A stretch of DNA of 37,327 bases from Nemertoderma westbladi (lineage: Eukaryota; Animalia; Xenacoelomorpha), in NCBI GenBank assembly GCA_032718475.1, contig JAUCBJ010004696.1:1-37327 (forward strand), read 5' to 3'. Below are positions 5,142 through 28,476 of this stretch, piece after piece. The notes below the pieces were generated by a model. That model did not search any database, was not told where the DNA came from, and saw nothing but the letters and a program-made list of their open reading frames with translations. Position 1 is the first letter of the stretch. Every line of letters starts with the position of its first letter. The position numbers were made by a program, and so were the translations under genes.

Positions 5142-5194
5142 GTGCAGAATTTCAACTCATTTAAATTAACCGCTACAAATTAATTGCATTTGTC

Positions 5195-5370
5195 TGTACC
5201 AATGAGACTGTAGTTATTTGATTGTAACCAATGTCGTGCAAGTTATATATTAGCTGGACCAATAGCTATCTTTAAAACCTTGTTAGAATCTATAGAACAA
5301 TCGAGAATTTTCTCGATTGATTGCGGCACAAATTTGGTATAAAAAGGTGCGATTCGTTCATTAGTTATCA
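5195..5370 (+). promoter_or_regulatory. Putative Pol II promoter of the LTR: CCAAT boxes, heat-shock-element-like array, TATA box
   Basis: ACCAAT three times (about 5198, 5227, 5258); aGAAc-aATCg-aGAAt-tTTCt at 5294-5313; TATAAAA at 5338-5344; TTAGTT Inr-like at 5361. The second LTR family has the same CCAAT-then-TATA layout (35263-35497). Confidence 0.65.
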
Positions 5371-6834: not shown

Positions 6835-6845
6835 GTAGGAATGTG
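6835..6845 (+). promoter_or_regulatory. Atypical primer-binding site (GTAGGAATGTG), complementary to LTR 5768-5778
   Basis: Immediately follows the 5' LTR, lacks TGG, and is the exact reverse complement of CACATTCCTAC at 5768-5778. Confidence 0.7.
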
Positions 6846-7642: not shown

Positions 7643-10600
7643 ATGAGTGACAAACAAGACTATACGAAGAATACACCTACCGACTATGACTCGTGTGACG
7701 CGGATAAGTCAGCAGCGGAAGACCAGCAGGGGAAGACTCGCGAGCCTACCGAACCTACACCGTGTGCGTCACCAGTACATCCAACGGGAGTACCGGATGC
7801 CGTAGTACGAGGCGACGGCAGGACCGAGGACTTTCTAACTGTTCCGCAACCTAGACATAGGGAAACGGAAATGGTAAGTTCAGCAGGAAGCACAGAAAGT
7901 GTGGTTAGAAGCGTCGGAGGTTACATGGCGCATATAACCAGGAGTATTGGGGAAGGCCAACGCATATTAGACGAGTTGACCGCTCCGATGTCTCGATTCG
8001 AGTTCTACACCCTCCAGGTTAGAGTACAAAGTAGAGTACACAAGTCCGTAGATAACCTAATTGGTCTACAAGATCTAGCTAGACAGAGACAGGACATGGA
8101 TACTCAACTTAGAATCCTCGAGAAACTAATGATCACTAGAGAGAAACTGATTCAGTTTAAGTCGACGATTAGACAGATACAACAGGAACAAGCGGACCAG
8201 TTGTTAGGTGAGTCAGTTTCGGATGAATTATTGCAGCCCGAGGAAGAACAGGAACTGTACCGACTGGATGGACAATTGAAACATCTGACGGACCACTTAC
8301 GCATGTGCGGCGAAGACGTCGGCGATTTGGAAGCCGTGCCGGAATATACGAGGGAAACTTCATTCGCACAAATCGAATCGGCACCGGGAATGCTAAATCA
8401 ATCGCTGGTAAGTATTTGTAGCGAAATCTGCGAGGGAAGTATAGTCACGTCAGAAGTTGCTCGACAACAGCAAGAATTCCACCGACAGCGACAAGAAATG
8501 GAAGAACAAGCTCAACTTCTAGTGATGCAGGCAGCAGTAGAGGAAGAGAAGCTACGCGTTGCGAATATAGCAAGAATCTCTCATCTACAGGAACAAGCTG
8601 AATTAGAAGCAGCCGAGGTAGAAAGGTTAGAAGTAGACATTGCCCGACAAGCGGCAGCGGCAGCGGCCGAGGTAGAGCGACAAGCGGCAGCGGCCGAGTT
8701 AGAGCGACAGAACGCAGCGGCCGAACTGGAGCGACAAACGGCAGCGGCAGAGGCGGAATTAAAACGAGAAAGGTTAGTTTCGGAAGCACGGGCCGAAATG
8801 AGAACACGGCAAATAAAAGCTCAATCCGCTATACGACAAGCGGAGTTTGAGGCGCAACGTCAACAAACGGAACAACGAGAGAAGACGGCTAAACTTCATT
8901 TCGAACTCGAGAAGAAGGCGAGAGAATTAGCGAACGCCGAGGAAGATCTGGATCAAAAGGCCCGCGATCGATCGATGAGATCTCGTGATGGACATGATTT
9001 GGACCAGTTAGAAGTAAGACATCGCCAAATTCAGGAACGGAAGAAGGAAGGAAGCGTAGGAGCACCCGGACGGGAACAACAATTAGTAAAAGACGTGTGT
9101 CAACGATTCCCACAGGTAACTCATATGTTTGCACCGGTTACAACAAAGGAACCTGTTTCGATTGCGGGTAGTCGTGATATTTCTCCTATCCATGGTGCGA
9201 CGGAACACAGGTTTGTTATCCCGGACGAGTTTACACCGCCAAGAGCAACGTCGTCGCCTATTCCGAAAGTCAAAGTAAGTAACCCACCGATTACAGATCG
9301 TAGTAGTTTATTGACCGCACCTGCACTACTGACGACAAAACAGGTGAGTCCACCTTTGACACCTAAACCGGTTACGCATTACACGTACCCAATGACTTTT
9401 AGGCCTACCAGGCCTTTAGATTCAAAAGCGGTTACTCGACCACCGAACCAGTTTACATCGCAATCTACGACTTCGAGGAAGACTTGTGAGCCTACCGAAC
9501 AATGGAGACCAGTGGATACGCGACCATTCAACCAGTTTACATCGCAATCTACGACTTCGAGGAAGACTTGTGAGCCTACCGAACAACGAAAGCGAGACGA
9601 TGTTCCGAAACGAAACGTGAGAATTCGTACGACACAACGAACGCGAGCACGTCGACCACCATATCCAGATGATAGTAGTACTTCGAGCGAATCGGATTAC
9701 CCGAAACGCGAGGTATTTAGAACAGGGGCGGCCGATGAATATAAACGCGAGCGTTCAGATAACTCCTTTGTAGACAATCCTCCACAGAATACACCAACAC
9801 AGAAGGCGTTACCACCAGCGGGCGCGATCGGTGCACAACAATTCGCAGACATTGTCAACAAGTTGGCCCGGATTGAGGAACGTCTGGAGGAAGGTTACAC
9901 CGACAGTTCGAGAAATTCCGAATTCGAACACAATAGACACCCGAAGGAACCACAAAGACAGGTACCTTCAAACCCCACATCGTATCAGGGAAAAGCGCCA
10001 AGAAGGGATATCAACAAGGTTATCAACCAAGGACGCGAAACTCTGAACGTTGCCGAGGAGATAGCGAAATTCGCAGCCAGACAGGGATTGCCGGTACAAC
10101 AACCACCGAAGTTTTCCGGTAGCTCAAAACACTGGCATACCTTCGTAGACTATATCGAATCCCAGATTGCCGTGTGCGCCTTTACGTCACGGGAGAAGTT
10201 CAATTACCTGCTCCAAACGTTGTCAGGAGAACCTAAACGTTTGGCGGAGACTTTCGTCGGTGTACCGGACGCTTTCGAACTAGCGTACGATCGTTTAACT
10301 TCGATATACGGAGGTACAGTGAGCATGGCCAGGTCAGTAATAGAGGAACTCTGTAAGGGAGGGGCTATCACTAAACCCGTCGACTTACTAAAACTAGCTG
10401 ACGAGATCAAGAACGCTATCACTACCTTAAGATCAATTGGACAACTTGATTACGGGAATACCCCTACAGTCCTATTAAAGATAATAGGACGACTCCACCA
10501 TCGACTTCGTCGGGAGTGGAGGAAGGTCGAATACCAGCGAGAGGAGCGGGGAGGATTCTTAAAACTAGAAGATGTGTACCTTTTAATATCCAGGGAGGCG

Positions 10601-11749
10601 GTAGTAGAAACTCGATCTAACTACACCGACCAGCACATCGTGGCAGAAGGAATCACGCTGCCATCCTCCAACCGACAAAAACCCCAGACAACATCCACTA
10701 AGACGGCCACTTACGCCACACCGACGGAATCACGACAATTCTCAGACGGTAATAGAGTATCTGCGCCCATTGGGACGAAACAGACGAGACAGCAACTCAG
10801 CACCGACTTCAACGGCTGCCAATACTGCGAGCATCTAGGTAAGCGGTATATTGGTCACAAGTTACGAGGTTGTCGACAATTTCGCGAGTTGAACTCGGAA
10901 GAACGACGGCTGCAGATACGGCCACTGGACTCTTGTTGGCGGTGTACGCGACACGGACACATGCGTAAGGATTGCCCAAATACTGACACTTGTCCATCCT
11001 GTGGACGCAACCACGACGGTCTGCTCCACACAGACAGCCACACGCCGACGAAACGCTTCGCCAGGGAACACCCGGAAGCAGCAGCGAGATGTGATGCGGC
11101 CTACCGAAAACGAGAATCGAAAACGACTCCAACCTTCGTGACCCATATTGAGGATTGCTTCTCAGAACAATCCGGATCGTCGGACGAAGAATCAGAAGAC
11201 GACGATGAATATTCCAATGGAGACGAACAACCGTCGATCGCGCTCCTGACTACTGATCAACTGAAGGGGTTCAGTGTAATCCCGATCAAGGTTACTGGCA
11301 CAAAAGGGAGCAAGAGGATCTATGCGATTCTAGATTCAACCTCATCCCATAGCTACGTGGACAAAAAGATAGCTGACGTCGTGACGGATCTAAAACAAGG
11401 TAAGCACGTCAGTTATACAGTAAGTAGTATGCACGGACAGCGTGCAATACCAGTGACACGAGTTAAGTTGGACTTAGACTCTCTTCTTCCAAAATCGCAA
11501 CACAGCGAGAGGGAGAGGTCTTTGTTGCCCTTTAGAGATCTAACTTTTGCGGCCACGAAGGACTTTAGTAACCTACTAGGTCCAGTGCCGGAACAATCTC
11601 TGGAGGACCGTAAGTATTTCAGACACCTTGGTGTACCCGAATGTCCTGTCAATTATAGATCGGTAGCAATGCTGATCGGGACGGACCAATTCAACCTACA
11701 TCAGGTGTGGGAAACCAGACCATCGGCAGTTGTAGCGGGAAACGCATAA
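7643..11749 (+). CDS. gag: BEL/Pao Gag plus aspartic protease (N-terminal part of the polyprotein; ends at an in-frame TAA)
   Basis: 1368 aa. Long E/Q/A/R coiled coil; PPKFSG...W..F capsid-like block typical of Pao Gag; CQYC..H..C, CWRCTRHGHMRKDC and CPSCGRNHDGLLH; protease motif YAILDSTSSHSYV and MLIGTD. Confidence 0.92.
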   Translation: MSDKQDYTKNTPTDYDSCDADKSAAEDQQGKTREPTEPTPCASPVHPTGVPDAVVRGDGRTEDFLTVPQPRHRETEMVSSAGSTESVVRSVGGYMAHITRSIGEGQRILDELTAPMSRFEFYTLQVRVQSRVHKSVDNLIGLQDLARQRQDMDTQLRILEKLMITREKLIQFKSTIRQIQQEQADQLLGESVSDELLQPEEEQELYRLDGQLKHLTDHLRMCGEDVGDLEAVPEYTRETSFAQIESAPGMLNQSLVSICSEICEGSIVTSEVARQQQEFHRQRQEMEEQAQLLVMQAAVEEEKLRVANIARISHLQEQAELEAAEVERLEVDIARQAAAAAAEVERQAAAAELERQNAAAELERQTAAAEAELKRERLVSEARAEMRTRQIKAQSAIRQAEFEAQRQQTEQREKTAKLHFELEKKARELANAEEDLDQKARDRSMRSRDGHDLDQLEVRHRQIQERKKEGSVGAPGREQQLVKDVCQRFPQVTHMFAPVTTKEPVSIAGSRDISPIHGATEHRFVIPDEFTPPRATSSPIPKVKVSNPPITDRSSLLTAPALLTTKQVSPPLTPKPVTHYTYPMTFRPTRPLDSKAVTRPPNQFTSQSTTSRKTCEPTEQWRPVDTRPFNQFTSQSTTSRKTCEPTEQRKRDDVPKRNVRIRTTQRTRARRPPYPDDSSTSSESDYPKREVFRTGAADEYKRERSDNSFVDNPPQNTPTQKALPPAGAIGAQQFADIVNKLARIEERLEEGYTDSSRNSEFEHNRHPKEPQRQVPSNPTSYQGKAPRRDINKVINQGRETLNVAEEIAKFAARQGLPVQQPPKFSGSSKHWHTFVDYIESQIAVCAFTSREKFNYLLQTLSGEPKRLAETFVGVPDAFELAYDRLTSIYGGTVSMARSVIEELCKGGAITKPVDLLKLADEIKNAITTLRSIGQLDYGNTPTVLLKIIGRLHHRLRREWRKVEYQREERGGFLKLEDVYLLISREAVVETRSNYTDQHIVAEGITLPSSNRQKPQTTSTKTATYATPTESRQFSDGNRVSAPIGTKQTRQQLSTDFNGCQYCEHLGKRYIGHKLRGCRQFRELNSEERRLQIRPLDSCWRCTRHGHMRKDCPNTDTCPSCGRNHDGLLHTDSHTPTKRFAREHPEAAARCDAAYRKRESKTTPTFVTHIEDCFSEQSGSSDEESEDDDEYSNGDEQPSIALLTTDQLKGFSVIPIKVTGTKGSKRIYAILDSTSSHSYVDKKIADVVTDLKQGKHVSYTVSSMHGQRAIPVTRVKLDLDSLLPKSQHSERERSLLPFRDLTFAATKDFSNLLGPVPEQSLEDRKYFRHLGVPECPVNYRSVAMLIGTDQFNLHQVWETRPSAVVAGNA
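8645..8770 (+). repeat. 27-bp coding repeats (RQAAAAELE) in the Gag coiled coil
   Basis: Repeated CGACAAGCGGCAGCGGCCGAG-like units. Confidence 0.8.
9437..9586 (+). repeat. 84-bp-period tandem duplication in gag
   Basis: NQFTSQSTTSRKTCEPTEQ is encoded twice, with the DNA copies 84 bp apart. Confidence 0.9.
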
Positions 11750-14700
11750 GCCTGCAGAACGCCGATAGGGTGGTATACTCGAGCGCCTGTGCGCACACTA
11801 GACGTAAGTGACGAGGAAGATGATGTACAGAGTACATGTAGTTTATTAACTACAAATTCAATTCATTCCTTCTCACACGACGTGAACCATACTACACTAC
11901 AGTCGACAAAACACGACAGACGTGTAACTAGTATGATAAGTCACAAGGAGCAGCTAACCCACAAGGTGAGTTTAGAACTTGGGGGGAAGACGAGACAGCT
12001 AGAGATTCCATCGACGACAGATGATAGGCTTGCGAGTCTACCTACCCCAATAACCTCAACAGTGCCCGTCGATATTGACGATGACGCGTTGAAAATTCAT
12101 CAGTTGGAACAAGCCGCCTTGGACAAAGAATTAACGGAGAAGACTATCAGGTGGTTAGAACAAGATACAGCTGAACCTGGTAGCTACGAACCTTGCATGT
12201 CGGAACAGGAGAAACAATCTCTGAAAATCATGGAAGATACTATCCGCCAGACGAAAGACGGACATTATGAGGTAGGGATGTTATGGCGTAGCCAAAGTCC
12301 TAAACTTATAAACAACTATCCACTGGCTTTAAGACGTCTACACTCAATACGGCAACGTCTATTAAAGGACGAGAAAGCCCATCTGCAGTATAACACTCAA
12401 ATGGAGACGTATTTGACAAAGGGATACGCTATCCGAATGACTAACCCGGAGCAAGTGACCGACCAGACGTACTACTTGCCACATCACTACGTGAGACACC
12501 CCGACAAACCAGACAAAGTACGTGTAGTCAATGAATGTGCGGCTCTGTTTGAGGGAATGTCCCTCAATAGTGAGTTGATGGATGGACCGAACATGAATAA
12601 TTATCTTATGGGGGTGATTATGCGCTTCCGTCAGCGTCAAGTAGCTTTGACTTGTGACGTTGAAGCGATGTTTCACCAAGTAAAAGCGTTAGAGCAAGAC
12701 AGAGACAGTTTGCGGTTCCTCTGGTACCCGGAAGGAGATTTAAGTCTACCACCGGCGACTTACCAAATGCAAGTTCGCGTTTTCGGTGCCAGAGACAGCC
12801 CAAATTGTACGATGTACGCCCTAAAGCAGGCCGCTAGAGATCAGAAACATTTATATGACCCAGAGATAATTAGAATTGTGGAGCGTGACTTTTACGTTGA
12901 TGACGGATTACAGAGTTGCGACACAGTAGAACGTGCTACAACAGTGGCACATCAATTACGGGACTGCTTGGCGGGCGGAGGTTTTAACCTCACCAAATTC
13001 GCCTCAAACAGTGCCGAATTAGTAGACTCATTCGGAACTACTGAGCGTGGAAGAGGTGACATAGACCTAGAGTTCGAACCACTACCGACGACTAAGGTGT
13101 TGGGGCTCTTTTGGGACCCAAACACAGACAACTTTCGAGTGAAGGTGAGACTGGACAGTCAAGGGAACACACTGACCAAGAGATCATGCTTGTCAAAATT
13201 GAGCCGATTGTTTGATCCGTTAGGATTCATCAGTCCAGTGATACTGCAAGCCCGCATTTATATGCGCAGTATATGGAAAGATGGACTAACATGGGACGAG
13301 CCGATCTCATCAGACCAAGTGGACTTATGGAAGACCTGGGAGGCGGAATTATCTTCGCTAGAGGATTATTTCATACCCAGGGTTTACTTTCCATTGCAAA
13401 GTACATTTCCTGACAACTTGGAACTACACTGTTTTTCTGACGCCAGTGACAACGGTTTTGGTGTGGCAGCGTACTTACGCAGACAAGTAGAATCAGACGA
13501 GTTCGATGTTTCGCTCATTACTTCTAAGGCTAAGACCATGCCTACTAAGTATATGACGACACCACGAGCCGAGCTACAAGCCGCAACCCTGTCAACCACC
13601 ATCGTGAACCTCATACAGACAGAACTACAGTCGAGTTTACAGATATTTTATTGGACTGACGCGACGTTGGTTTTATTTTACATAAACAACGACACACTTG
13701 AATTCAAGACATTCGTTGCTAACCGTCGCGCGGAAATTCTAGACCGTTCAATAAAAGGGGATTGGCGACATTGTCCCGGACCACAAAACCCAGCTGATAT
13801 TGCGTCGCGAGGAATGATGCCTGAGGAATTCTGTAAACCGGAGAACAAAGAATTTTGGCAACACGGACCCCAATTCTTGCAGAAATCTACACAAGATTGG
13901 CCTCCGTTATACGACAATAAATCTAACACTATCCCGAAGGACGCCGAAATCAAGAAACCAAAAAAGGGGAAGACAAAGAAAAGGACAACGGCGGCAAAAC
14001 TCAAGAAAAAACCGAAGGCGAAATGGAAAGATATAACTTCAAAGGTCAAGAGAGGAAGACTTGCGAGCCTTTCTACACCAGACATATCGCCAGACGGTCA
14101 ACCAGACACGTTACTAGACGGTCAACCAGACGTTTTGCCAGACATATCACAAAATGTTCTACCAGACACTAGTGACGTACTGACAAACAGTAAAGCCGCA
14201 GTTTCCCTATTGGAGCGGCCTTCTGTTGACAAACAACCAGATACGTTACCAGACGTATCGCCAGACACATTACTAGACAGTCGACTAGACATTTTGTCAG
14301 AAACATCACAAAATGTTCTACCGGACATTAGTAATGTACCGACTAACAATAAAGCCGCAGTTTCCCTATTGGAGCGGCCTTGTATTGACAAACTACCAAT
14401 TTTGACACACTTGAACAACCATAAGCACGGTGAAACCTCATGTATTACAGATGTGGGTAGTACCTACGCTAATGTAAATACAGGTGTTACTTTGCGCTCA
14501 AGAGACATACCGAACTTGCAACCTATGATGAGACCTGGGATTAATGTCGGCAGGAAAATAAGTTTACCGAAACCTGCTGACCCCATAGAGTTCAAACCAC
14601 CATTAACAATCGACTTACAAAGTACTGACGATCAAGGTAAGAAGACGAAGAAGGACAAATTACTTGTAGACCCCGACGGATCAACAGTCAACAAGGGAAT

Positions 14701-15229
14701 ACTTACCGGCGGACCCGTGGGCCCTTCTAGTAATTCAAAACCTTCCAAAATTTCCATTGACTTACCTGATGACGTCACAAATACTCATGTCGACCGTATT
14801 GTAAACTTAACAGATTCTTGGTCGAACGCTTGCCGAAAACTAGCGTGGATTGTACGTTTTGTACAATACGTTAAAGGCAAACGTGACTTTACACGTCGAC
14901 TTACATTGGCTGAGATTGACAGGTGTGAGATTAAATTAATTCGCCATTACCAACTGCGATATTTCGCGCGCGAATTCACATCTATAAGTCAAGGTCAACC
15001 AATCAAGTCGTCACCAATACTGAGTTGGAGTCCGATAATTTATAATGGCTTAATTTGTCATAAATCTCGGCTTCAAAATATTGACTTTAACACAAACTTT
15101 AGGTACCCAATAATAATACCGCAACATCACGAACTACAACGTGCAATGATACTGGACGCACATTTACATCTGAAACACGCTGGAAGACACCACTGTCTTT
15201 CCTACTTACGTACTATTTGTATTAATTAG
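11750..15229 (+). CDS. pol: Pol: reverse transcriptase, RNase H, long linker and start of the integrase zinc finger
   Basis: In frame with the preceding ORF (...GNA*ACRTPIGW...). YYLPHH, KVRVV, DVEAMFHQV, FGARDSP, FYVDD, KVLGLFW, LFDPLG, FSDAS, PRAELQAA, YWTDA, NPADIASRG, HLHLKHAG. Confidence 0.95.
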   Translation, partial: ACRTPIGWYTRAPVRTLDVSDEEDDVQSTCSLLTTNSIHSFSHDVNHTTLQSTKHDRRVTSMISHKEQLTHKVSLELGGKTRQLEIPSTTDDRLASLPTPITSTVPVDIDDDALKIHQLEQAALDKELTEKTIRWLEQDTAEPGSYEPCMSEQEKQSLKIMEDTIRQTKDGHYEVGMLWRSQSPKLINNYPLALRRLHSIRQRLLKDEKAHLQYNTQMETYLTKGYAIRMTNPEQVTDQTYYLPHHYVRHPDKPDKVRVVNECAALFEGMSLNSELMDGPNMNNYLMGVIMRFRQRQVALTCDVEAMFHQVKALEQDRDSLRFLWYPEGDLSLPPATYQMQVRVFGARDSPNCTMYALKQAARDQKHLYDPEIIRIVERDFYVDDGLQSCDTVERATTVAHQLRDCLAGGGFNLTKFASNSAELVDSFGTTERGRGDIDLEFEPLPTTKVLGLFWDPNTDNFRVKVRLDSQGNTLTKRSCLSKLSRLFDPLGFISPVILQARIYMRSIWKDGLTWDEPISSDQVDLWKTWEAELSSLEDYFIPRVYFPLQSTFPDNLELHCFSDASDNGFGVAAYLRRQVESDEFDVSLITSKAKTMPTKYMTTPRAELQAATLSTTIVNLIQTELQSSLQIFYWTDATLVLFYINNDTLEFKTFVANRRAEILDRSIKGDWRHCPGPQNPADIASRGMMPEEFCKPENKEFWQHGPQFLQKSTQDWPPLYDNKSNTIPKDAEIKKPKKGKTKKRTTAAKLKKKPKAKWKDITSKVKRGRLASLSTPDISPDGQPDTLLDGQPDVLPDISQNVLPDTSDVLTNSKAAVSLLERPSVDKQPDTLPDVSPDTLLDSRLDILSETSQNVLPDISNVPTNNKAAVSLLERPCIDKLPILTHLNNHKHGETSCITDVGSTYANVNTGVTLRSRDIPNLQPMMRPGINVGRKISLPKPADPIEFKPPLTIDLQSTDDQGKKTKKDKLLVDPDGSTVNKGILTGGPVGPSSNSKPSKISIDLPDDVTNTHVDRIVNLTDSWSNACRKLAWIVRFVQYVKGKRDFTRRLTLAEIDRCEIKLIRHYQLRYFAREFTSISQGQPIKSSPILSWSPIIYNGLICHKSRLQNIDFNTNFRYPIIIPQHHELQRAMILDAHLHLKHAGRHHCLSYLRTICIN
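14075..14400 (+). repeat. Internal tandem duplication (PD-rich units) in the RNase H-integrase linker
   Basis: SQNVLPD...KAAVSLLERP is encoded twice; AAAGCCGCAGTTTCCCTATTGGAGCGGCCTT is duplicated near 14192 and 14351. Confidence 0.85.
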
Positions 15230-16295
15230 ACCAAGTAAAGCATTAAGTTCAGTGACACGTACGTGTATTATTTGTAAAAAGGTACATTCTAGAATAGGTA
15301 CCCAAGAAATGAGTGAACTACCACAAGCACGACTTCAAGCATTCAGGCCACCTTTTACAGAGACTGGAATTGATTGCTTTGGTCCCATACATACGAAACG
15401 TGGACGCATACTAGTAAAACGCTGGGGACTGATTTTCACATGTATGTCCAGTAGGGCAGTTCACATTGAACGTGTGATGGATCTTTCCACCAACGCGTTT
15501 ATACTAGCACTGCGGCGATTTATCGCTAGACGCGGACTAGTAAAATGCTTGTACTCAGACCAAGGGACAAACTTTGTTGGTGCTCGGAATGAAATTGCTA
15601 GAGCCTTTAAGAAATTAGACCATGATCAAATCTCGAACGAACTACAACCTCACAAGATTGTTTGGAAGTTCAATCCTCCAGATAGTCCTTGGAGAGGCGG
15701 AGTCTGGGAGAGATTGATTAGATCTATCAAGACAGCCATGGCAAAAGTCATTCCAGTAAACCACATATTGACAGACGACCAACTGACAACATTGTTTGTT
15801 GAAATCGAGGCAATACTAAATACTAGACCAATAGTATTAGTACCCGATGACAAACAATCTCAGTTTGCTTTGACTCCGGCACACCTGCTAATGCAGGCAC
15901 CGACGACTTTGACGCCTATTTCTATTCCAACAGAAAGCGACAGCTACGGTAGAAAAGCGTGGAAAATCACGCAACTACTGGCTAACAAATTCTGGGAAAT
16001 ATGGCAAAACCATTATTTGCCCTCTATTTCTGCCAGAACAACTTGGTACAATAACACCCGCGCATTAAAGCCGGGAGATCACGTGCTGTTGGCAGAAGTG
16101 AATCTGAAAAGACGCTTCTGGATAACAGGTGTAATTTTAGCCACACATCCATCTATGGATGGAGTGACAAGAACTGTGACGGTACGGACAATTGACGGTC
16201 GTACAGTAGACAGACCGACTCAACGTCTCGTACTCCTTGAAGAGACTCGTAACGAGTCTGGAGACTACAAATCTCCACCTAATACTAGTAAATAA
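15230..16295 (+). CDS. Integrase core and Pao-type C-terminal domain (frameshifted relative to pol)
   Basis: CIIC, GIDCFGP, RAVHIE, SDQGTNF, GGVWERLI, NTRP, LTPAHLL, FWEIW...YL, GDHVLL, DGVTRTV. Frame changes near 15215-15230, between the HH and CC of the zinc finger. Confidence 0.95.
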
Positions 16296-16957
16296 TTAGG
16301 AGTTTACAAATAGATTTCCACGTACCTGTACACCGTAGTAAGGACAGCGGTAGAATTCCATTGTCTTTATATGTGAACATTGAGGGTAGTACCCTTATGT
16401 GTCACATAGGAGCGGGATTTGTAGGTATAAGAAATGGAATTCTACTTGGAACTCACAATATTGAGACATTTTCGAAATTTTAGACAATCCATTTGGATTT
16501 GAAAAATTTTTAAAATTTTCTCCAGTGAATAGATTTCAGGGTACAGTCGGGTGGAACTTAAAATTAGAGAAACAAGAGAGGAAGACTTGCAAGCCTTTCT
16601 TAAAATTTTAATTAAATTTTACACGGTCTTGTTTCAATAAGTTACGCAAATAAATAGACTCCCCTATATTTATTACTAATTCTTGACTGCTTATTTTCTG
16701 ATAATAGTTTGGGATCAAAAAGTGAGTATTTTAGACTCACAGCCAGTTTAGCCCAAATTCGTTTTTATTTCGGCAAAAAATTTTAGATAAGAAGCAGCGT
16801 GTCATTAAAGAAACCCTAGATCTTAGGCTATGGGTAGGAGGTTAGAGCGTTGTCGAAGCCCAAAAGGCAGACGAAACTCTCACGTCTCCTCACAACTAAC
16901 CACAAACTCTGTTGTATTCCCTCTAGTAGTAATGATTATGTAACTACACCCCTAATT

Positions 16958-18965
16958 ATGGAGAAAGGGACACAAGGAGAGCCGAGATGGGGATATGATA
17001 TCCAAGAGGAGGCAGCAGCGCCATTCGAAAGATTTGGAGCCAAGGATTATACTATATTCGGTATAAAAGAATTATCGGAAAGTACAGCGAAACTCGCGAG
17101 AACTAAATATGACTCGAACGTATTAAAGAGAAGGCAAAACACATTAAACGAAAGAATCGAAAGTTTGCGCCAAACCTTCAACGAACTTTACCCGTACGAT
17201 GCTTTGTGTGATACGGGAGACATTAGCGAAGACCCCGATACTGAAATTAGTCGTTTGTATCATACCATGCAATACCTAAAGGCGCACGAACCTATGCCCG
17301 CGGTACGCGATGAATTCGATGGAATGCATCTTTACAGACGAACTCGAGGGGACGATAGAGAAACCAAGGAAGCATTTTCAGTTTATAAACTTTATTATCA
17401 ATGCGGTTCTTGTATGCGCGAACAACGAAATGCGATTCCGATGCGTTTGAATAAGGAAAATCCCGAACCGATATTGGCGAGGTGTTCGAACCATCAACAA
17501 CTATGTTACCCTATGAAGGAGAACGTATCGTGGAGATTACGGAAGAATCACGGCAGACGCGCGCGCCTATCGGTCACCTCGGTGATGAATTCGAAGTAAC
17601 TACTACGATCGCCGACGATCCTTTAGAGGAACTTCTTGAGATAGAAAGGAACCTCCCGAAGAAATCTCAGACGGAGATTCGACAACTTGAAGCAACAGAT
17701 GCATAGTTTGTATACAACCTTCAGAAACCTACCAACCCATAGACCCAGATGATTACGATTATAGTGTGGGAGGAAGCGCTCGACCGATTGGAGATCTTAT
17801 ATACGAACGAGTGTGGTACCCTGCCAATACGATGTGTAGTAAATGTGGCGTCGCTGGACATCATATGACAAAGTGCAGTGGAAAGCACATTACTACGACT
17901 CAGCTAATCTGTGGATGGTGTGGGGATCAAGGGTCTCATACCTTTTATACTTGCTGGAGATTTATGGCTCAATGTACTTACTGCAATATAAAAGGACATC
18001 GAGCATCTGAATGCCAACTAAGGGACATACCTTATGAACACGAATCTGTAAAACTCGTGAGGAAGTTATTTGCTGAGTGGGAAGATTTAGCCGACGAACA
18101 TGTATCGGCACAAAGAAGACGGTTTCCGATGAGAGCGCATCTCGGATTTTGGGCGGTAAATCCTCAAACGATGATGTCGGAAGGATATATCTCCGCTATG
18201 CCCCAATATGACGAACTTATCGAGGTTGTCGATATTTTGCCCCACGACAGCGGATTCCGAGTGGTGCGCGAGTATCTGTTACAGATTCACCCAGATAACA
18301 AAAACACGTGGAATTTTCAGAAAGTCGTTAATCGTATCACGTATGGTGAATTTGATCGTTTCCGAACTGAAAAGCGGAATAAAGGAGCTTGGTTAACCGT
18401 CGCATGGGCGTACCGAGCCGCGTTTTACCATAAACGTATACGAGCGAGCGTATTCGAGGAAGAAGAGGTCCTAGAGGCGACGAATATACCAGCCACTCCG
18501 GTTGCGCCGTCTGCACGTCACCCTCGGGAGGACGGACAGGGTAGGATCATACGGGTCCAGAAAGTGGGCCAACAATTAAAGAAAATTATTAATGTAGAAG
18601 AACGCAAGGGAGCTGAGCCGACCATTCGAGTTACTCGGGATACGGTATCACTTCCAAGAGAACCAGTAGGAGGATCGGGACATACACCAGCTGATCAACA
18701 AGGGGCGCAAGCTACTCTTGGGTCTGCGTCGTCCGCTTCTCGCGCGTTCCCAGACGTTCTACCAACTGTAGTGACGACTGATCGGTCACGAGGAATCGGT
18801 CGAGGTTTTGGGATGCCAAATAGACGAATTTGCGAGGAAATAGTTGCACCGTCTCTCAACGTCCCAAGTAAACCAGTGACTCGTCCCATTAGTCCCATAT
18901 CGCGAGCAAAGTCACCTGTGCGCAGTTTTCGAGGACGCGGCAGGGCTCGATCCACTAAGCGATAA
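16958..18965 (+). pseudogene. Accessory ORF3 of element A: unknown N-terminus, three CCHC zinc knuckles, basic RS/RG tail; two frameshifts
   Basis: Three ORF-track pieces; the last two align in order with element B ORF3. CSKCGVAGHHMTKC, CGWCGDQGSHTFYTC, CTYCNIKGHRASEC. Frame changes near 17480 and 17703. Confidence 0.8.
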
Positions 18966-19757
18966 AAGGGAGGGCAAGGGTGGACGGAAGACTCGTGGGC
19001 CTTTCTTATTGTATTGTTCTAAACTTATGCAATTGTATTGTTCCAAATTTATTGCTCAGAACTTATGCAATTTATTTTATATTTAGAAAGTTTTATATTC
19101 TGGAAGAACTCATACCTAAAGAGTAAGAATTTATATTTTATATTTACGTGATTATTTCGAACTTATGCAATTTATATTGTTCCGAATATTATGCAATTTA
19201 TATCTTATAAGCAGTATTTGTATTTACAGTGAAATAGAAAGTAAGAGTAGACGGAAGACTCGTGGGCCTTTCTTATAGTTTCATTTGTAAAGTGTTATTT
19301 TGTATTTAGAAAGTTTTATAGTCAGAAAGTTTTGTGCTCAGAAAGACTCATATTTGTAATTATTCCAAACTTATGCAATCTACATTTAGGTACGAAAGTA
19401 TTTGTAATTACTTGCATTTATGTAATATTTGAGATGCAATAGTAGATGGAAGACTCGCGAGCCTTTCTTTTTGTTTTCATTTATTTGTATTTGTAATTGT
19501 TTGAATTTATGCAATATTGAGATGCAATAGATTTATATTGGTGAATTTAATTTAGATTTATATTGTACTTACTTAGTAAAGCCTTAAATACGTAAAGTTT
19601 GAATTTGTAATTATTTTTTGTATCGAATTATTACGTAGAAAGGAAGTATTATTTGAAATTTAATTTGTAAATATGTAAGTACGCCCTAAGTATTCTATAG
19701 TTTGATTGATTATTGGTGAAAACCGTATATTTTATGCACGATAATATCCTGTTTTCA
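18966..19757 (+). repeat. AT-rich 3' UTR of element A built from degenerate internal repeats
   Basis: Repeated (AC)TTATGCAAT, TTTAGAAAGTTTTATA, and three copies of the GGAAGACT...GCCTTTC hairpin. Confidence 0.7.
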
Positions 19758-19765
19758 TGGAGCGG
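19758..19765 (+). promoter_or_regulatory. Short plus-strand primer (PPT position) TGGAGCGG
   Basis: Directly abuts the 3' LTR; the same CTGTTTTCATGGAGCGG precedes the element B LTR (ending at 35000). Confidence 0.7.
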
Positions 19766-21673
19766 TATAGAATTATATTCTCTAAATGCCGTGGATTTTC
19801 AAAATTTCTATTTTATTCGGATTAACTTTGTAAAAGATTGCTTTGAGTTCTCATTCGTATTGGTTCTATCTATTGTACACCCATCGGTCAAGTGGTTCAG
19901 TAGCTCAGTCGGTAGAGCGTTGGAAATTATATGTGTAGTAGGTATCGAGTTCGAATCCTAGTAAATGCGAATTATTTTTTGTGCAGAATTTCAACTCATT
20001 TAAATTAACCGCTACAAATTAATTGCATTTGTCTGTACCAATGAGACTGTAGTTATTTGATTGTAACCAATGTCGTGCAAGTTATATATTAGCTGGACCA
20101 ATAGCTATCTTTAAAACCTTGTTAGAATCTATAGAACAATCGAGAATTTTCTCGATTGATTGCGGCACAAATTTGGTATAAAAAGGTGCGATTCGTTCAT
20201 TAGTTATCAATCTCAACCTTAGTTTACAGATTATATCTCTTGTTTATTCTGTCATTAGTATTCAGATTACATTTTGTATTATTTTCTGCAATAAATTCGG
20301 AAATACCGCTATCTGCTTTTCTTTTACTATGCTTCACCACGGTGAACCCAGCTAAGGGATAGGATGGCAGGCTAGAGATCGGGCCGCAGCAATGAACAGG
20401 AACATCACGGGAATGTAGACGAGAGACAACCCGCAATACCTTCTTGAGTTATTCGCCCATCGCCTGAAAGGTTAGACAGCGTTCGATCCTTGCTACCTAA
20501 GTGTAAGACCAAAGATCAAAAGGTAGACGTAGTGACACGCTGCAAGCCTAAAATTACATCATAGGGACTGTACTGTCTTGATTCAGGAAAACCCACAGTA
20601 GACCTTCACATTCCTACGGGGAGGGGAGAGAGAGCGCAGGCAGATACTAGTACGCAGATAGGACGTAGGCACACCGGTACAAGGCATACACATTGGTTAG
20701 GGTGCAGCAAACTGTACGCTTAACTCTTGCTAAGTACAGGTGCGTGTGCGACTATTTGCAGTACGACAGTGTCCATTGCATTAGAACTTGTAGGCTAGGG
20801 GGGTTGCTGTGTTTTCACCTGAATTGGGATTGTACCGTTCAGGCGGTAGGGCAGTTTACACTAGGCGCAAATAAATTGAGGCTATCAGGGATATACTAAC
20901 ATCTACCGTGTCCCCGCCAACGCCCTAATAGGAAGTTACCCGGACTACCTGGGTGACTAAAATTCTAGATAGGAGCCAGGATAGCTATTAGTACCCGTAC
21001 GCCTACAGTAGTAAACTAACACATCTCTTCTTAGTATCAGGGACCTGGTACCTAAAATTGCCGAATTCTGGGCGTAGTATTAACCTTATGCCTGAATTTT
21101 GAGTCCTGGAAATACGCAAGAGGGGAAGGAACCTTATCATTTGTGAGTATTGGACCTACAAGTTACAAAATTAGAATATTCGTAAAATGCACACCGTACC
21201 CAGTAATTATATATGAGAAGGAGCAAAACTGTTTTGACCGTTCAGAATTAACACACGCGCGTTAGAAATTATTTACACCTCGAAATATATAAAATTAACT
21301 TTCGTCCTTACTGTGCTTTGCCCGCTAGTTAGACATCTCCAAATCTCTGCCTGTACCTAGCTAGCGTCCCTTTGCCCAACCATATAAATCACACCGCGGC
21401 AAAGTATACGAGCCCCTTAGTCCGTCAGTGAGTCAGCCTGATTTTAGGATTCGCTGCGCGGGATTTGTTTTATCGAAGTTTGTCTGCTCGTAGACTGTTT
21501 TCTGCCTCACCGGTTATAAGAGATCGATACTGCAATATATTCGTTTACTTAGAGTTTACTGTTTTGGTGAGAAGGTCGGATTTATGATTTGATTTACAAA
21601 CTTTACAGTAGGATATTGCAGGTATTGTTACCGTCTCTTCCAATTAGTAGGAATAGGCGTATCTCTTCCAATA
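19766..21673 (+). repeat. 3' LTR of element A
   Basis: Copy of 4927-6834; only one difference noticed by eye (C6303 vs T21142). Confidence 0.96.
19894..19980 (+). ncRNA. tRNA-derived Pol III module, 3' LTR copy
   Basis: Identical to 5055-5141. Confidence 0.7.
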
Positions 21674-21848
21674 ATAATAATACTTATATATATATTATAA
21701 GTGTATACCGGTATTCTAATATTATATATATAGCGTTACATTGAGTAATGGTATCGGTAATTAATTAATAGGCTTACAGTTGATACTGAATTACTAGACT
21801 TGCTTTAACTGTCGTTATAGTAGTAGGCATTCAACTGTGCAATCAAAC

Positions 21849-22411: not shown

Positions 22412-22724
22412 TGTGACGGGATCCCAGTTTATCCGGTTTTCAATCTACGCGTCCCCGCCGTGTGTGAAAGGTGAAAGAGTTTATTGATCGTTGTATGTAG
22501 TTCTCCGGGTAAAATAGTATAGATATAAATATAGATGACACAGAATTTATAATATGATGTTGATAGTAAACGGAAGACGGGTGACGGTGATTAAAGTCCC
22601 GGTACTTCCCTAGCTAAACTAACATAACTATACACTGACTAAATGACACACTGACTAAATGATACACTGACTAAATGATTGCTGTACTGATAATATATAT
22701 ATTGCACGGATGGCCGTTGTTACA
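22412..22724 (-). repeat. Probable 3' LTR of element C (313 bp)
   Basis: Minus strand begins TGTAAC and ends GTCACA, contains AATAAA, is preceded by a GGGGGGAAGG tract, and has three ACACTGACTAAATG repeats. No second copy in the window. Confidence 0.65.
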
Positions 22725-23984
22725 TTACTCAGCCGGTGCCTTCCCCCCATTGGCTAATAACCCTGTTGTCGCCCTTTCACCTCCCCTGAAGTGCTTCCCT
22801 TTGCCCCTGCTATTCTCTCTCTCTCAGGGGTGTAACCCCTGACCTCTATTGTGCGTATGTTTCTCCCTCCCACTTTGTTGGGGTGACACGAGGTTGATTG
22901 ATCACACTCGTGTTCCCCAATATTTCCTAAAACCTCACTTTATGGGTTGGTTAGCGGAATTGGATAAGCTAACACTCCCCCCCATGCTATCTTCCCGGTG
23001 AGAAGATAGCATCCACCTCTAGTGCGCTACAATTCCGCTGGATCCCAATCTAGTATCGGGTGTGGGGTGGGTCTATATTCTTGGAGTCGTCTTTCCAGGC
23101 TGCTCCCTATGGGTATGATAATGCTACCCCATCTTGGTACAACTCTAGCTATCTTGTACCAAGACATGTGGCGTCCTGTGTTGGGCCGATCGTGCGCTTC
23201 TCTCACACAATTTTTGTTTCCCCAACACTTTTGCCCTAACTCTCCTCCACACTCACCCTAACTCTCACACTCTCGGACCTCCTCGTCCCTCACTCCGCCT
23301 CTTACTTCTCCCCCCCCCCACACTTGAATTGCGCCCACACTCACTTCACACTCCGAACTCCACGCTCTATTACTCATATCTCGCCCTATCTACCCTCTCA
23401 TTCCTGACGAGCCTCACCCCCCTTTTTGTGCCATCGCACTCAAGAAGTATGATGTCGTCAGCGTCTCATCCGTGACTTACAGTACCATGGTCGATTAGAC
23501 CCCAGTCCCAGTAGCTAATTGGAAAAGGTTGTGCTTGACTACGGTACGTACTTTATAATATACATACATGGTTCACTTATATAATTATTATAAGGCTATT
23601 ATTATCATATATTATATTACATGCTCATCTACATAACGCGCCTCATTCTCTCTCGGCCTTTCTCCCCTGGCGACTTCTTCCAGTCGCTTCTCCCCAAATC
23701 TATCCACTTCCAGCCTCCCCCATGTGATGTCTATCCACCTCCCTGTCTACTAGATGCCGGCCGTTGTATTACACCGACTCGCCCTTCAGCCCCAGGTGGT
23801 CTAGCAGACCTTCGAAGGCCATCTTGAAGGCTCTTCTGTAGTTTGGAGGTGATTCTAATATCCTTAATTTTTATTTTTAAATTTTGTGCTATTAACCCTA
23901 CCTACCTTTCTGGCTGCTATTTCTATGATATATTGTGCTCTCTTATCTCTTACTATATACTATATTTTATATCCCCCTATCACT

Positions 23985-24545
23985 AATCCTTACTACTAAC
24001 GGTACTCTATGCACCCTCTTACTAAATAGTTCTATAACTAACTACTACTCTTTTTAGCCAGTACTACGTACTCTCTTACTAACTTCCAACTCTACTCTTA
24101 CTAACCGGTACTACGTACCCTCTCACTAACTCCTCTAACTCCACTCTTACTAACTAACGGTACTACATACCCTCTTACTAACTCCTCTAACTCCACTCTT
24201 ACTAACTAACGGTTCTACATACCCTCTTACTAACCTCTAACTCTCTCTACTAACTAACGGTACTACGTACCCTCTTACTAACTCCTCTAACTCTCTCTAC
24301 TAACTAACGGTACTATGTACCCTCTTACTAACTCTAACTAACTAATGGTACTACGTACCCTCTTACTAACTCTTACTAACTAACGGTACTACGTACCCTC
24401 TTACTAACTCTAACTAACTAACGGTACTACGTACCCTCTTACTAACTCTAACTAACTAACGGTACTATGTACCCTCTTACTAACTTCTCTAACACTCCTA
24501 ACTAACGGTACTACGTACCCTCTTACTAACTAACTTCTACCTACT
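23985..24545. repeat. Minisatellite of 35-50-bp units (ACTAACTAACGGTACTACGTACCCTCTT...)
   Basis: Roughly a dozen imperfect copies visible. Confidence 0.92.
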
Positions 24546-24676
24546 TACTGCATACTTATTATGTACTATTATTTTTATTTTTATTTTCTTTATTTTTTGT
24601 GGGAGGGGCGTCTCACCCTCAATCCCACCCCCCTCAGTCCAAAACTTGGACGACTAAACTCCTCTCTCACTCTGCT

Positions 24677-25030
24677 CTAAGGTGCTCCCTCTAGTAGACA
24701 GCACTTCCCTACAGCCCTTCTGTAGGTCTTCCTGTCTTTCGCACCTATCTTGCCACCTATCCGTACTTCTACCGATCGGACTCTTCCGTCCTCATCGGAT
24801 TAAGTGCCTACAACTCTCGCCAACCGCCACTGGTTGTTGATGATAGTATCATCCGTGACGATCACGAAATCACCCTCCCTTAACTCTCTGTTCGTCTTCC
24901 TCCACTTGCTTCTTCTGTGGAGCGTGGGTAGGTATTCCTCAACCCACCTCCTCCAATACTCTGCGCTTATTGCCTTAGCAACTTTCCAACTCTGGCGGGA
25001 GTGTATGTCATCTGGGTCTATACCCCGCAT
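24677..25030 (-). pseudogene. BEL/Pao integrase C-terminal domain remnant
   Basis: YWRRWVEEYLPTLHRRSKW...LREGDFVIV...WRLARVVGT*SDEDGRVRSVEVR...CCLLEGAP*; internal stop at 24800-24802. Confidence 0.9.
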
Positions 25031-27841
25031 ATCGATACCATTCTATTGGATATCCCACGATCAAACCGAACCTAAGGAGATGACACCCGAGCTCTTCGAT
25101 AGTATCACCTTTGCTCAGCGTTTGTCGCAGAGACTACAGATACCTCATGTTGAGATGATGCGAGAACCGAGTCAGCTGAGTTGCGTAAAACAATAGTTCA
25201 AAAAATCGTACGCAACGTGCCTCCACATATTACGGACTTTAAGGAAGTGGATCGCGCGGGGACGAATATCGCACCTTGTATCTTGCGAGGATATCTGACG
25301 AAAACGATTCGATTATGGATCGGAGTTGGAACGTTTGAGACCTACACCGATATCGCGACCAATTGGACCAGTAAACCTATTAGTTTTGATGATGAAAAGT
25401 CAATTGGGAGAATTTGGAACCCTACCGATGATTTACTCGACGATTGGGACGTGACTAGCCGATCTCTAAAGGAGAATGGTTATATGTTTTACGACAATGA
25501 AGGAGGAAGCCATCAGCAAAGCCTCACTTCGAAAACTATACAGATTAGAGCACCAGATGGCGTGTTACATGTCTTCAGCCGACAGAGGAGTGATAGAAAG
25601 ATGCCTATGCCGGAAGGAACGACGCAAAGACACGCGATGATAAAACAGATAGTTAAATCCATGGACCTGGCTTGTAGCATAGAAGCTAGGATTTTGCCAA
25701 AGGCCGTGCGAGATGTTGTGTTGGACAAGAGCATCGTCAAGATCGGATCCGGTGTACGGGATGACCTTATTAGCGATTTTGCGGGAATGCCCACGGAAGA
25801 GGATCGATTGCCTATGCCATATGTGGATACTAGACCATTGTTGCTTTGGGCTATTGAGCAAGGATATTTTAGGGAGTATAACACGCTAAAAACTGGGACG
25901 GGTTATATATCATATCTAATGTTCAGTTGGAATCATAAGGAGAGTAAGAGGAGCAAATACACGGACGTATACGGAGAGGGAGATACCCCCGGCGTAAACG
26001 AGTTCGAGTCACAGTTGAAGTGGCGAGGTTGCGTGTATTGGGCGATTACTTCACCTCCACAAATAATCTTGCAATACTATTTAGCGATAGAATCTTCAGT
26101 CAACATTTCTTTCATCGCAGATGTAGTATCTAGAACCCTAAAGCGACATCCGTTATGTCTCGGTGACGGATATACCTTTTACGACGGAGGAAGGACGCAT
26201 ACTGATGTATTCCGACGATTTCTCCAACCCTTTTATAACACTGATGCGCACTGCGAAGTTTTCACGCGAGCGGGACTTAGCTTTTTTTTTTAGCGGGACG
26301 TCTATCTCACTCACGCGGGAAGCCTAGTCGACAGACCGTCGATGTTAACGTTAGTACCCTATGACGGGGAACGCCACGCGGAATTCAAAGGCCCGGAAGG
26401 ATCCTGGAAGGCACGCGAGCCTACCGCCCATCATGACGATGTGGATCCGACCGAGTTTGCGATGATAGACGAACCGTTGCGGCAACTCATAGAGATAGAG
26501 GAGAACCTTCCGAGGAAGACGCGAACTGAGATACGCGAGTTGTGGAAAAGCGATGCCATGGTTTGTGTACAACCTACGGAGACGAACATACCGAGTGACC
26601 CGGATGATGAGAATTATCACGTGGACGGTAGCGCTCGCCCCATTGGAGATCTCATCTATGAGCGAGTTTGGTACCCTGCCAAAACTATTTGTGGCAGATG
26701 CGGGGCAACTGGCCACCACGCAAAGAAATGCGGAGCAAAGCACATATCTCTACCGGAGTTGGTATGTAACTGGTGCGGGGATCAACGTTCGCACACTTTC
26801 TACACTTGCTGGCGTTTCGTTTGCTGGCACGTATTGTAATATTAAGGGCCATAGGGCATCCGAATGTCAACTTAGAGACGTTCCCTATGAGCACATGTCA
26901 GTTAAAATCGTTCGACAGCTATTCGACCATTGGGAGGATCTAGCAGACAAGCATGTATCGACGCAGCAACGCCGTTTCCCTATGAGAGCACATTTGGGAT
27001 TTTGGGCCGTAAACCCTCTCATAATGTCGAAGGAAGGATACGTATCGGCTATGCCTCAGTATGATGAATTGTTGGAGGTGCTGGATATATTGCCTTTGGA
27101 TAGCGGATTTAAGGTTGTGCGGGACTACTTTCTGTAGGTACACCCCGACAACAAGAATACTTGGAACTTTCAAACTGTGGTGAACAAGATTACCGCCGGG
27201 GAATTCGACAAATTGCGAGTTGAACAGCGGAATCGAGGAGCCTAGCATTCGATAGCTTGGGCATACCGGAGCGCATTTTATCCCAAACGCGTAACCTCGT
27301 GTATTCTAGACAAGACCGATGTTTTGCGTGAGACTGGCTTCAAGGCCACGCCGTTAGCAGAGAAGACTCGTCACCCACAGGATGATCAGCAATTTCGTAT
27401 ACTCAAAGCCCAAAAGGCCGGACAAGAGATAAAGAAGGTAGTAAATGTCGCCGAGAGGATGACATCGAAATCGCAAATCCGGATGACTCGGGGCACGGTT
27501 TCCCTTGCTAGAGAACCACGCGGAGGGACAGGTTACGCTTTGCCGGAACCCATTAGGATTCAAACTACGTCAGAGAGCGAGGTGTCAGCGGACGGAACAG
27601 TCCCACCTTTTCGACTTCCTCCCAGCGTTGTAGAGACTTGATCCGATGTTAAGTCAACGATTGGAATCGGACGAGGATTTAGAGGATTGAGCGCACGACG
27701 GATGTGCGAAACTCCCGTGTCCCATTTCCTAGCGTTTTGGAACCACCGACAACTCGACGCCAAAGTCCGAGCCCAGTTCGACCTCGACCACCACCCAATC
27801 GCACTAGAGAACGTGGACGAGCCCGCTCAGCGAAGGAATAG
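25031..27841 (+). pseudogene. Accessory ORF3 of element B: WRN/DEDDy-like 3'-5' exonuclease-fold domain, three CCHC knuckles and basic tail; multiple frameshifts and stops
   Basis: TIQIRAPDG.LHVF, LPKAVRDVVLDKSIVKIGSGVRDDL, YVDT and YYLAIES follow the motif order of WRN-like exonucleases. GSARPIGDLIYERVWYPA and RRFPMRAHLGFWAVNP are identical to element A. Ends ...RGRARSAKE* at 27841. Confidence 0.75.
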
Positions 27842-27876
27842 GAAAGCGAGAAGAAGGAAGGCTTGCGAGCCTACCG

Positions 27877-27975
27877 ATTTGGATATTTATATTTGGATAT
27901 TTTATTTGGATGTTATATTGGATATTTATATTGGATATTTTATTTGGATATTATATTTGGGTATTTATATTGGAC
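27877..27975. repeat. Short tandem repeats ATTTGGATATTT(A/T)T
   Basis: About seven copies visible. Confidence 0.8.
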
Positions 27976-28476
27976 ATAATGTACGAATGTTGGGTTTGGA
28001 AGAGCGAGATAGAGAAGGAAGACTTGCGAGCCTACCGTTAGCAATTAGTGCTCAGGAGAAGATATCCAGACCAGCAGGACGCACTTTTCAGATTGTCAGG
28101 AGGACACTTTAAGACTCATTTGAAAGTTATTAGTGCCTTATGTTTATTTTATATTTGAACTGATTTAATTTAGTGAAAGTTTATTATGTATATTTACAAT
28201 ATATAAAGATTTATCAAAAGAGATTGAAATTATTTGTTTGATTTGTTCTAATTTGTTTTGATCTAATTTGTTTAATTTGCTTACCTTGATAACCGAAAGC
28301 CCCTTTTGTATTTTATGCACTAAAGTTAATTGGTAAATTTATATTATGTAATTTCCTGTTGAATTGCTACTGCTGTAAGCATAAAACTGCTGTGCTAATA
28401 CTGCTGTACTAATACTGCTGTACCTACAACTGAATACTGCTGTACTGATTATGCATACTGAAATCTTATGTAAATT

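Follow-up and report, generated by a model that had tools for sequence, protein, structure and literature searches.

A 20-nt self-complementary motif inside two related BEL/Pao retrotransposons of Nemertoderma westbladi, evenly spaced in one of them

RNA dimerisation of the yeast element Ty1 is driven by palindromes, and these PAL1 and PAL2 sequences, like the dimer-initiation sites of retroviruses, are self-complementary stretches of genomic RNA that switch from intra- to intermolecular pairing; they measure 6-7 nt, number two or three, lie near the 5' end and are mutually unlike (PMC6844567). The Sireviruses Ji and Opie of maize, plant elements of the Copia superfamily, carry palindromes of about 17 nt at some seven per long terminal repeat (LTR). 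These are shared by families, have arms better kept than the centre, cluster in the LTR as proximal pairs forming long stems, and in some cases lie near the env-like gene (PMC4728375). The VANC motifs of VANDAL transposons are described as family-specific, present in many same-orientation copies, subject to turnover in tandem repeats and accompanied by an extra element-encoded gene; they are 8-9 bp long, not palindromic, dense and mainly non-coding, and their binding by protein has been demonstrated (PMC5735166). Here we describe a 20-nt near-palindrome that occurs 13 times in a 37,327-nt stretch of Nemertoderma westbladi DNA (contig JAUCBJ010004696.1, assembly GCA_032718475.1; hereafter the window, to which all coordinates refer). 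Within the window it is restricted to the inner parts of two related BEL/Pao LTR retrotransposons, element A and the fragmentary element B.

The known kinds closest to this motif are the RNA-dimerising palindromes of retroelements and the multi-copy motifs of transposons, and it departs from both in position. Where Ty1 and retroviruses have one to three short sites near the 5' end, A has ten copies from 7731 to 19448, and a single 20-nt sequence occupies seven evenly spaced sites over 12 kb, coding linkers included, in two families. It resembles the Sirevirus palindromes in being shared by families and in having arms better kept than the centre. Unlike those palindromes with their LTR-clustered cis-region, single copies are dispersed through gag, pol and the third open reading frame (ORF3), and none lies in an LTR. 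With VANC motifs it shares family specificity, numerous same-orientation copies that turn over in tandem repeats, and the company of an extra gene encoded by the element. The accessible part of a review of viral RNA export contains no comparable dispersed motif (PMC7551171), and neither the motif text nor an evenly spaced internal palindrome in any LTR element was found in the literature searched, which excluded subscription papers and Repbase.

All 12 copies listed by the initial annotation were found; ten match its consensus exactly, 26406 differs at one position and 12023 at three. A diverged thirteenth copy lies at 17552. The copies are as follows (UTR, untranslated region).

7731..7750, plus strand: Gag N-terminal extension
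9477..9496, plus strand: Gag linker, member of an 84-nt tandem pair
9561..9580, plus strand: Gag linker, member of the same 84-nt tandem pair
12023..12042, strand not assigned: protease-reverse transcriptase linker; asymmetry mirrored, likely inverted
14054..14073, plus strand: insertion between RNase H and integrase
16580..16599, plus strand: integrase-ORF3 spacer; position-12 letter peculiar to this insertion
17552..17571, plus strand: ORF3 linker of A; orthologue of the copy at 26406 in B
18986..19005, plus strand: 20 nt past the ORF3 stop of A
19253..19272, plus strand: 3' UTR repeat unit of A
19448..19467, plus strand: 3' UTR repeat unit of A
26406..26425, plus strand: ORF3 linker of B
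27856..27875, plus strand: 15 nt past the ORF3 stop of B
28017..28036, plus strand: 3' UTR of B

The pattern GGAAGRCTYGYGAGCCTWYC, allowed up to 3 mismatches, returns these 13 sites, or 21 matches when strands are counted separately; 100 dinucleotide shuffles put the chance expectation at 0.05. At up to 2 mismatches, 60 Markov simulations gave no match. Position weight matrix (PWM) scores fall from 21.0 bits at the thirteenth site to 12.0 bits at the next-best site in the window, and the information content of the motif is about 32 bits. Its limits are sharp: among the nine non-tandem sites the commonest base is present in 9/9 at positions 1, 4, 5, 7, 10, 14, 16, 17 and 20, and outside positions 1-20 in only 3-5 of nine. 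Half-site positions 1, 4, 5 and 7 are invariant in all 26 half-sites. Twelve copies share the transcribed orientation, while the copy at 12023 scores higher when reversed (25.8 versus 18.1 bits, leave-one-out PWM).

Scans at up to 3 mismatches bear out the earlier statement that the LTRs (three were scanned) and the long interspersed nuclear element (LINE) are free of the motif, as are the minus-strand BEL fragment and the left flank; the 14.7 kb of the window outside A and B hold no copy. Target-site duplications were not seen in the motif flanks, and Rfam covariance models gave no match to the window at E up to 5. Pattern scans of metagenome and viral contigs returned 60 metagenome loci and one viral locus, none of which resembles the window elements; a second loose match was present in 5 of the 61. 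Identity to A does not exceed 43% among the 120 best pol homologues, and motif peptides occur in 1 of 121 proteins scanned, as a chance-like match.

Although all 12 noted copies are present, they cannot be counted as independent: those at 9477 and 9561 form one tandem duplication, and those at 18986, 19253 and 19448 belong to 3' UTR repeat units. With tandem copies collapsed, by our own choice, to seven independent sites, the gaps in A are 1746, 2546, 2031, 2526, 972 and 1434 nt (1.0-2.5 kb), of which the 972-nt gap spans a stretch missing from this copy of the element. Uniform placement produces such evenness in 0.7% of cases, a figure that falls to 0.1% if only the 6,966 non-conserved positions are open to the sites; for the largest gap of the seven sites, P=0.004. 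The layout gives the picture of one site per inter-domain linker.

We take the motif to be a genuine cis element that is under selection, confined to this lineage within the DNA examined and unusually regular. As had been proposed, its constraint lies at the nucleotide level: copies occupy two reading frames (KTREPT, KTCEPT or KAREPT versus GRLASL) plus non-coding sequence, and every motif-bearing stretch is covered by at most 14 of the 120 BEL/Pao homologues. In three A/B site pairs, 14, 17 and 15 of the 20 motif positions are identical, whereas the ungapped flanks agree at 6-10 of 20. Third codon positions at the ORF3 site are unchanged in 6 of 7 cases (103 of 255 across the ORF3 core, P=0.02), although 5 of the 7 amino acids there differ. 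The placement of a copy shortly after the ORF3 stop is likewise common to both families. Contigs from the sequencing runs point in the same direction. At 16591 the odd letter of the window is a minority state, since essentially all contig depth shows the usual base; at 18998 the usual base makes up 82%, 93% and 47% of depth in runs X1, X3 and X4, and the window letter is the minority state overall. Just past the 18986 copy, contig depth drops from tens of thousands to below 700; family members share this copy yet diverge 4 nt after it. Contig joints also reveal that 3' UTR repeat units are lost and gained among family members. Counting against constraint, variants within motifs make up 1 of the 21 listed in 18930-19500, with 2.2 expected, which is no significant deficit.

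A pattern of pairing runs through the centre of the motif. Like the Ty1 palindromes and dimer-initiation sites, the core (positions 7-14) complements itself in the sense of the genomic RNA: 51 of 52 cells pair there and 39 of 52 in antisense. When all cores are paired against all, 93% of cells pair in sense and 75% in antisense. Of the cells at positions 9-12, ten are imperfect, each of them a G-U and never an A-C; both kinds would be expected of a symmetric DNA site or of CpG decay. Double changes preserve core pairing at 17552 (G8-C13) and 16580 (U9-A12). The core-pairing score is reached by 24-26 of 500 shuffles, a marginal result on related rows with a core chosen after seeing the data. 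Four of the core pairs are impossible within a hairpin and possible between two copies. Predicted homoduplex energies range from -8 to -31 kcal/mol, and the mirrored copy at 12023 is predicted to pair with every other copy at -24 to -30 kcal/mol and is the best predicted partner for the other copies of A. When each copy is taken with its 60-nt context, the prediction joins 11 of 13 through the motif itself; for 8 of the 13, the gain reaches or exceeds 12.5 kcal/mol, which is the 5th percentile among random 60-mers of A (n=300).

From the copies themselves, their confinement, conservation and spacing and this pairing pattern, together with a hairpin predicted to be weak and a duplex predicted to be stronger, we infer the function of the motif entirely: the 20-mer may provide open self-complementary contacts, in many copies, that join or compact an oversized sense genomic RNA. 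We rank this reading first while granting it somewhat less than an even chance. Mismatches would stop each copy from closing into a hairpin and leave the central 8 nt free to pair elsewhere, with a partner copy on a second genomic RNA or about 2 kb along the same RNA. The kept A6-C15 mismatch would make sense if it breaks the hairpin beside the loop and spares the 8-bp duplex run. With one contact in each protein linker, the row would keep the two RNA copies aligned along their length and pack more tightly a genome roughly double the size usual in the family. Gag or ORF3 would likely read or stabilise the symmetric 20-bp duplex, and such reading would explain the sharp ends of the motif. Of the functions offered by the initial annotation, dimerisation through a palindromic core is thus the one placed foremost, whereas the hairpin form given to the signal is not supported. 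We speculate further, and more tentatively, on a distributed zipper, in which open palindromes in every linker at roughly 2-kb intervals replace a single 5' dimer-linkage site, compact an RNA of the 15-kb class and may have allowed a doubling in size.

Several points weigh against dimerising or compacting contacts. The copies share ancestry, and over independent changes the wobble bias amounts to 4-7 preserving changes versus one breaking change (P=0.19 to 0.035), which only tilts the odds toward RNA pairing; one of the two double changes is, moreover, peculiar to this insertion. Four copies with a U11 core self-pair weakly (-8 to -15 kcal/mol), for 2 of 13 copies no motif-to-motif pairing is predicted, and the median duplex energy is alike on both strands (-20.0 versus -19.5 kcal/mol). 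Positions 1 and 20 never vary even though they lie beyond a mismatch, and pairing stops at 20 nt, which pairing alone leaves unexplained. Counting all ten A copies brings the spacing to P=0.04 (3.9%). A spliced ORF3 RNA would also carry the 3' sites, and known dimer palindromes are shorter and lie at the 5' end (PMC6844567).

The next candidate, possible if doubtful, is a double-stranded DNA site for a dimeric protein, either a host factor or ORF3 itself, placed every 2 kb or so to keep the integrated element open or transcribed in the manner of VANC. Sharp 20-bp limits, half-sites invariant at four positions and one mirrored copy are all natural to such a site, and stem A-C cells exceed G-U cells by 12 to 9. 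The sense hairpin is unstable, whereas the hairpins of the leader show a G-U sense signature (-10.7 versus -5.5 kcal/mol). The gain and loss of copies in 3' UTR units among family members is also what VANC targets do, and precedents exist in the Sirevirus LTR palindromes (PMC4728375) and in the VANC motifs themselves (PMC5735166). The centre, however, is one-sided, with C to T found 11 times and the mirror change, G to A, once, in a form peculiar to this insertion; the double change at positions 8 and 13 has no reason in a half-site model, and the motif is absent from the LTRs. Zinc knuckles are usually RNA-binding, and it is these that ORF3 carries, with no match to a DNA-binding family.

A sense hairpin had been the form first proposed, as an imperfect 8-bp stem, and folding gave it little support. 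For 10 of the 13 copies the sense 20-mer has a folding energy of only -0.4 to -2.9 kcal/mol. Among the 11 distinct copies, 72 of 88 stem cells are paired, and the sixth pair is open in 8 of these copies, the third in 6. Across all 13, the mismatch at pair 6 is A-C in 10 copies and that at pair 3 is A-A in 6. Stem probability exceeds 0.9 at all four context sizes only in 26406 and stays below 0.15 at all four in 5 of 13 copies. None of ten sense 40-mers lies beyond z=-1.73 relative to shuffles. The covariation that had been suggested as a check, run on the 11 distinct copies, stays within shuffles, 89 of 500 reaching the score and 340 of 500 the double changes (11 related rows, low power). A stable hairpin is not supported because the folds are weak, the stem is seldom predicted in context and covariation does not exceed chance. 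The remaining version, in which Gag or ORF3 would steady a hairpin that is weak on its own and the copies would serve, in the manner of Rev or boxB, as scattered signals for packaging, localisation or export, is unlikely. It would account for the common orientation of 12 copies and for an invariant G10, as in a loop read by protein; the copies of B and 12023 do fold at -4 to -8 kcal/mol, and ORF3 is likely made from spliced RNA and has an arginine-rich tail. In addition to the low stem probabilities, 40-mers that do not go beyond z=-1.7 and unremarkable covariation, it leaves the self-complementary loop of every copy unexplained.

A neutral by-product seems quite unlikely: reverse-transcriptase template jumps would seed a palindrome in tolerant linkers, and fold-back correction would keep its symmetry. 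The few flanking bases common to copies (28 nt, 14054 versus 16580), the position of 5 of 13 copies within tandem repeats and the variant count in 18930-19500, not below expectation, would all suit such an origin. It is opposed by the even spacing, by orthologous sites kept between families whose third positions are 40% identical, by an 18986 copy that is shared though its bearers diverge 4 nt later, and by the minority status of the window letters at 16591 and 18998.

Still less probable is a hairpin on the opposite strand, formed by minus-strand cDNA or by antisense RNA. As 20-mers, 11 of the 13 copies do fold better in antisense, and control palindromes of A have no such lean (40 sense, 30 antisense, 11 ties). 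The bias rests on one ancestral A6/C15 state, with 12023 as the exception, and as DNA the hairpin reaches only 0 to -1.7 kcal/mol in all ten A copies. That the copies are targets of one 20-21-nt small RNA, of host or element, is very improbable: length, sharp ends and changes that are mostly transitions, tolerable by guide wobble, would fit, whereas neither A nor its LTRs hold a complementary source, Rfam has no match, and the self-complementarity of the best copies is equalled by only 12 of 12,471 other 20-mers of A.

Some further candidates were set aside by eye. Sites of p53, NFI, BANP/ZBED1 and Smad differ in spacing or key bases; the 5' end of miR-7 resembles the first 8 nt of most copies, but the likeness fails in 4 of 13 and lies on the strand opposite to that of a target; ADAR sites were considered and dropped. 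A central polypurine tract is unlike the tract that the element itself possesses. CpG decay alone fits the loop changes poorly because these are one-sided and the element is not CpG-poor (observed/expected 1.0-1.4 in genes).

ORF3 is, like Gag, a candidate binder of the motif and is likely made from spliced RNA, given that one X4 contig (from what we guess to be a DNA run) joins 7252 to 16926 with GT..AG ends (29-nt side) and that the window offers a canonical donor at 7254 and a branch-like acceptor at 16926. Since the spliced RNA would retain the 3' copies and the leader intron holds far stronger hairpins, the earlier suggestion of a selective packaging signal is doubtful. Those leader hairpins are three, near-identical and sense-favoured, with 10-bp stems, just before gag at 7437-7556 (-10.7, -10.6 and -6.9 kcal/mol in sense, -5.5, -5.4 and -5.9 in antisense), and are better candidates for packaging signals than the 20-mer. 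ORF3 has three CCHC-type knuckles, for which the Pfam zf-CCHC match is below cut-off, a helical domain and the terminal arginine-rich tail. The helical domain is conserved and without relatives in any collection searched: no ORF3 homologue appeared at near or longer lengths in the protein collections or in metagenome or viral contigs, no usable pol locus came to light, and a comparison with 1.84 billion representatives returned one unrelated repeat protein only.

ORF3 of B begins with a part that resembles an exonuclease by eye only, with D-x-E, D and Y-x-x-x-E in exonuclease-like spacing, followed by knuckles and helical domain. The best alignment to RNase D covers the stretch where ExoII is expected, without significance (E=0.33); an 11-sequence DEDDy profile scored this ORF3 below shuffles, no library or profile match to a DEDDy exonuclease was obtained for ORF3, and single-sequence folds were poor (pLDDT, the predicted local-confidence score, of 32 for the exonuclease-like query of B and 44). 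A DEDDy-exonuclease ORF3 is described for the bdelloid elements Juno and Vesta, where it is likewise a non-env third frame expected from a spliced message; in N. westbladi three knuckles and a helical domain of no known family follow the exonuclease-like part, and the accessible portion of the Juno and Vesta report mentions no repeated motif (PMC5408684).

To our knowledge, dimerisation, selection and packaging of LTR-retrotransposon RNA are known for little beyond Ty1 and Ty3. Replication of BEL/Pao elements in particular is described as poorly understood (PMC8742986). A regular motif of 20 nt and 32 bits is a precise handle: natural fragments of modest length are enough to tell RNA-RNA pairing and DNA binding apart. 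Whichever of the two applies would be a novelty for BEL/Pao, as a dimer linkage distributed along the RNA or as protein sites arrayed over the whole element within coding sequence, and the finding bears on the limits of retroelement size.

The elements that carry the motif, and the features around them, are these.

4927..21673, plus strand: element A, BEL/Pao LTR retrotransposon of 16.7 kb; 3' end possibly 3 nt shorter
4922-4926 and 21674-21678, flanking A: its 5-bp target-site duplication
4927..6834, plus strand: 5' LTR of A, 1908 bp, no motif
7643..16295, plus strand: gag-pol of A, with Pfam DUF1759, Peptidase_A17 and DUF5641
16927..18965, plus strand: ORF3 region of A, three CCHC-type knuckles and helical domain, frameshifted in this copy
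19766..21673, plus strand: 3' LTR of A, no motif
25154..28480, plus strand: element B fragment, 5'-truncated, broken ORF3 and 3' UTR
34820..37327, plus strand: likely the rest of the 3' UTR of B with its polypurine tract and 3' LTR, continuing past the window end; free of the motif

The best homologues of A are BEL/Pao polyproteins (34-43% identity), and between its LTRs it has Gag and the Pol domains in the order protease, reverse transcriptase, RNase H, integrase. LTRs, polypurine tract and Gag/Pol domain order are thus those of Belpaoviridae, whose members measure 4.2-10 kb with LTRs of 0.2-1.2 kb; at 16.7 kb, with LTRs of 1.9 kb, no tRNA-type primer site seen and an ORF3 that is not env-like, A is an oversized variant (PMC8742986). 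Its LTRs differ at one base over 1908 bp; a stop codon at 11747 and, near 15200, a frameshift break its gag-pol. Contigs of all four sequencing runs cover A (16,968 in X1, 7,393 in X3, many alike at 90-99%), and A is a multi-copy family because thousands of similar contigs recur across runs. In three runs, contigs depart from the window sequence at 17504-17510 (in one case by about 1.4 kb), where similarity to B also sets in; this copy of A therefore lacks part of ORF3. An insertion of some 280 codons separates RNase H from integrase (13950-14800), with a 159-nt tandem duplication directly after the motif; its 14000-14600 stretch is covered by none of the 120 homologues.

The LTR of A begins with TA rather than TG and may end with TA (4927, 6834). 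A TGG-type primer-binding site was not seen after the 5' LTR, where an 18-nt tRNA site is usual for Belpaoviridae; no host tRNA set was compared. The 11 nt that follow this LTR (6835-6845) are the exact reverse complement of LTR positions 5768-5778 (and 20607-20617), a stretch that begins in an initiator-like context. This resembles the self-priming of Tf1 and Tj1 (PMC4600332) and would be unusual for BEL/Pao. A tRNA-like cassette with A and B boxes and then a T run opens both LTR types (5062-5119, 19901-19958 and about 35140-35230) and is possibly an RNA polymerase III unit or an insulator in U3; ARAGORN and Rfam make no call on it. The sole stretch common to both LTR types (6539-6647 and 36889-36987, 74% over 111 nt) has a TATA-like box and is likely the core promoter.

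The ORF3 cores of A and B share 70% protein identity and 40% identity at third positions. The 3' UTR of B is interrupted by a LINE; past it, the polypurine tract is the one seen in A, and the LTR that follows begins with TG at 34996. What had been taken for a separate element C, from 34996 onward, follows the tract that precedes the 3' LTR of A and is likely the own 3' LTR of B, displaced by the LINE. A third BEL/Pao fragment, an integrase C-terminus on the minus strand (23975-25100), faces B head to head, and in its 3' UTR a different, 13-bp palindrome is present nine times within a tandem array. In the reverse-transcriptase gene of the LINE, at about 32020-33445, sits a 1.4-kb element of long inverted repeats (87-93% complementary) that bears the same 8-mer on both sides.

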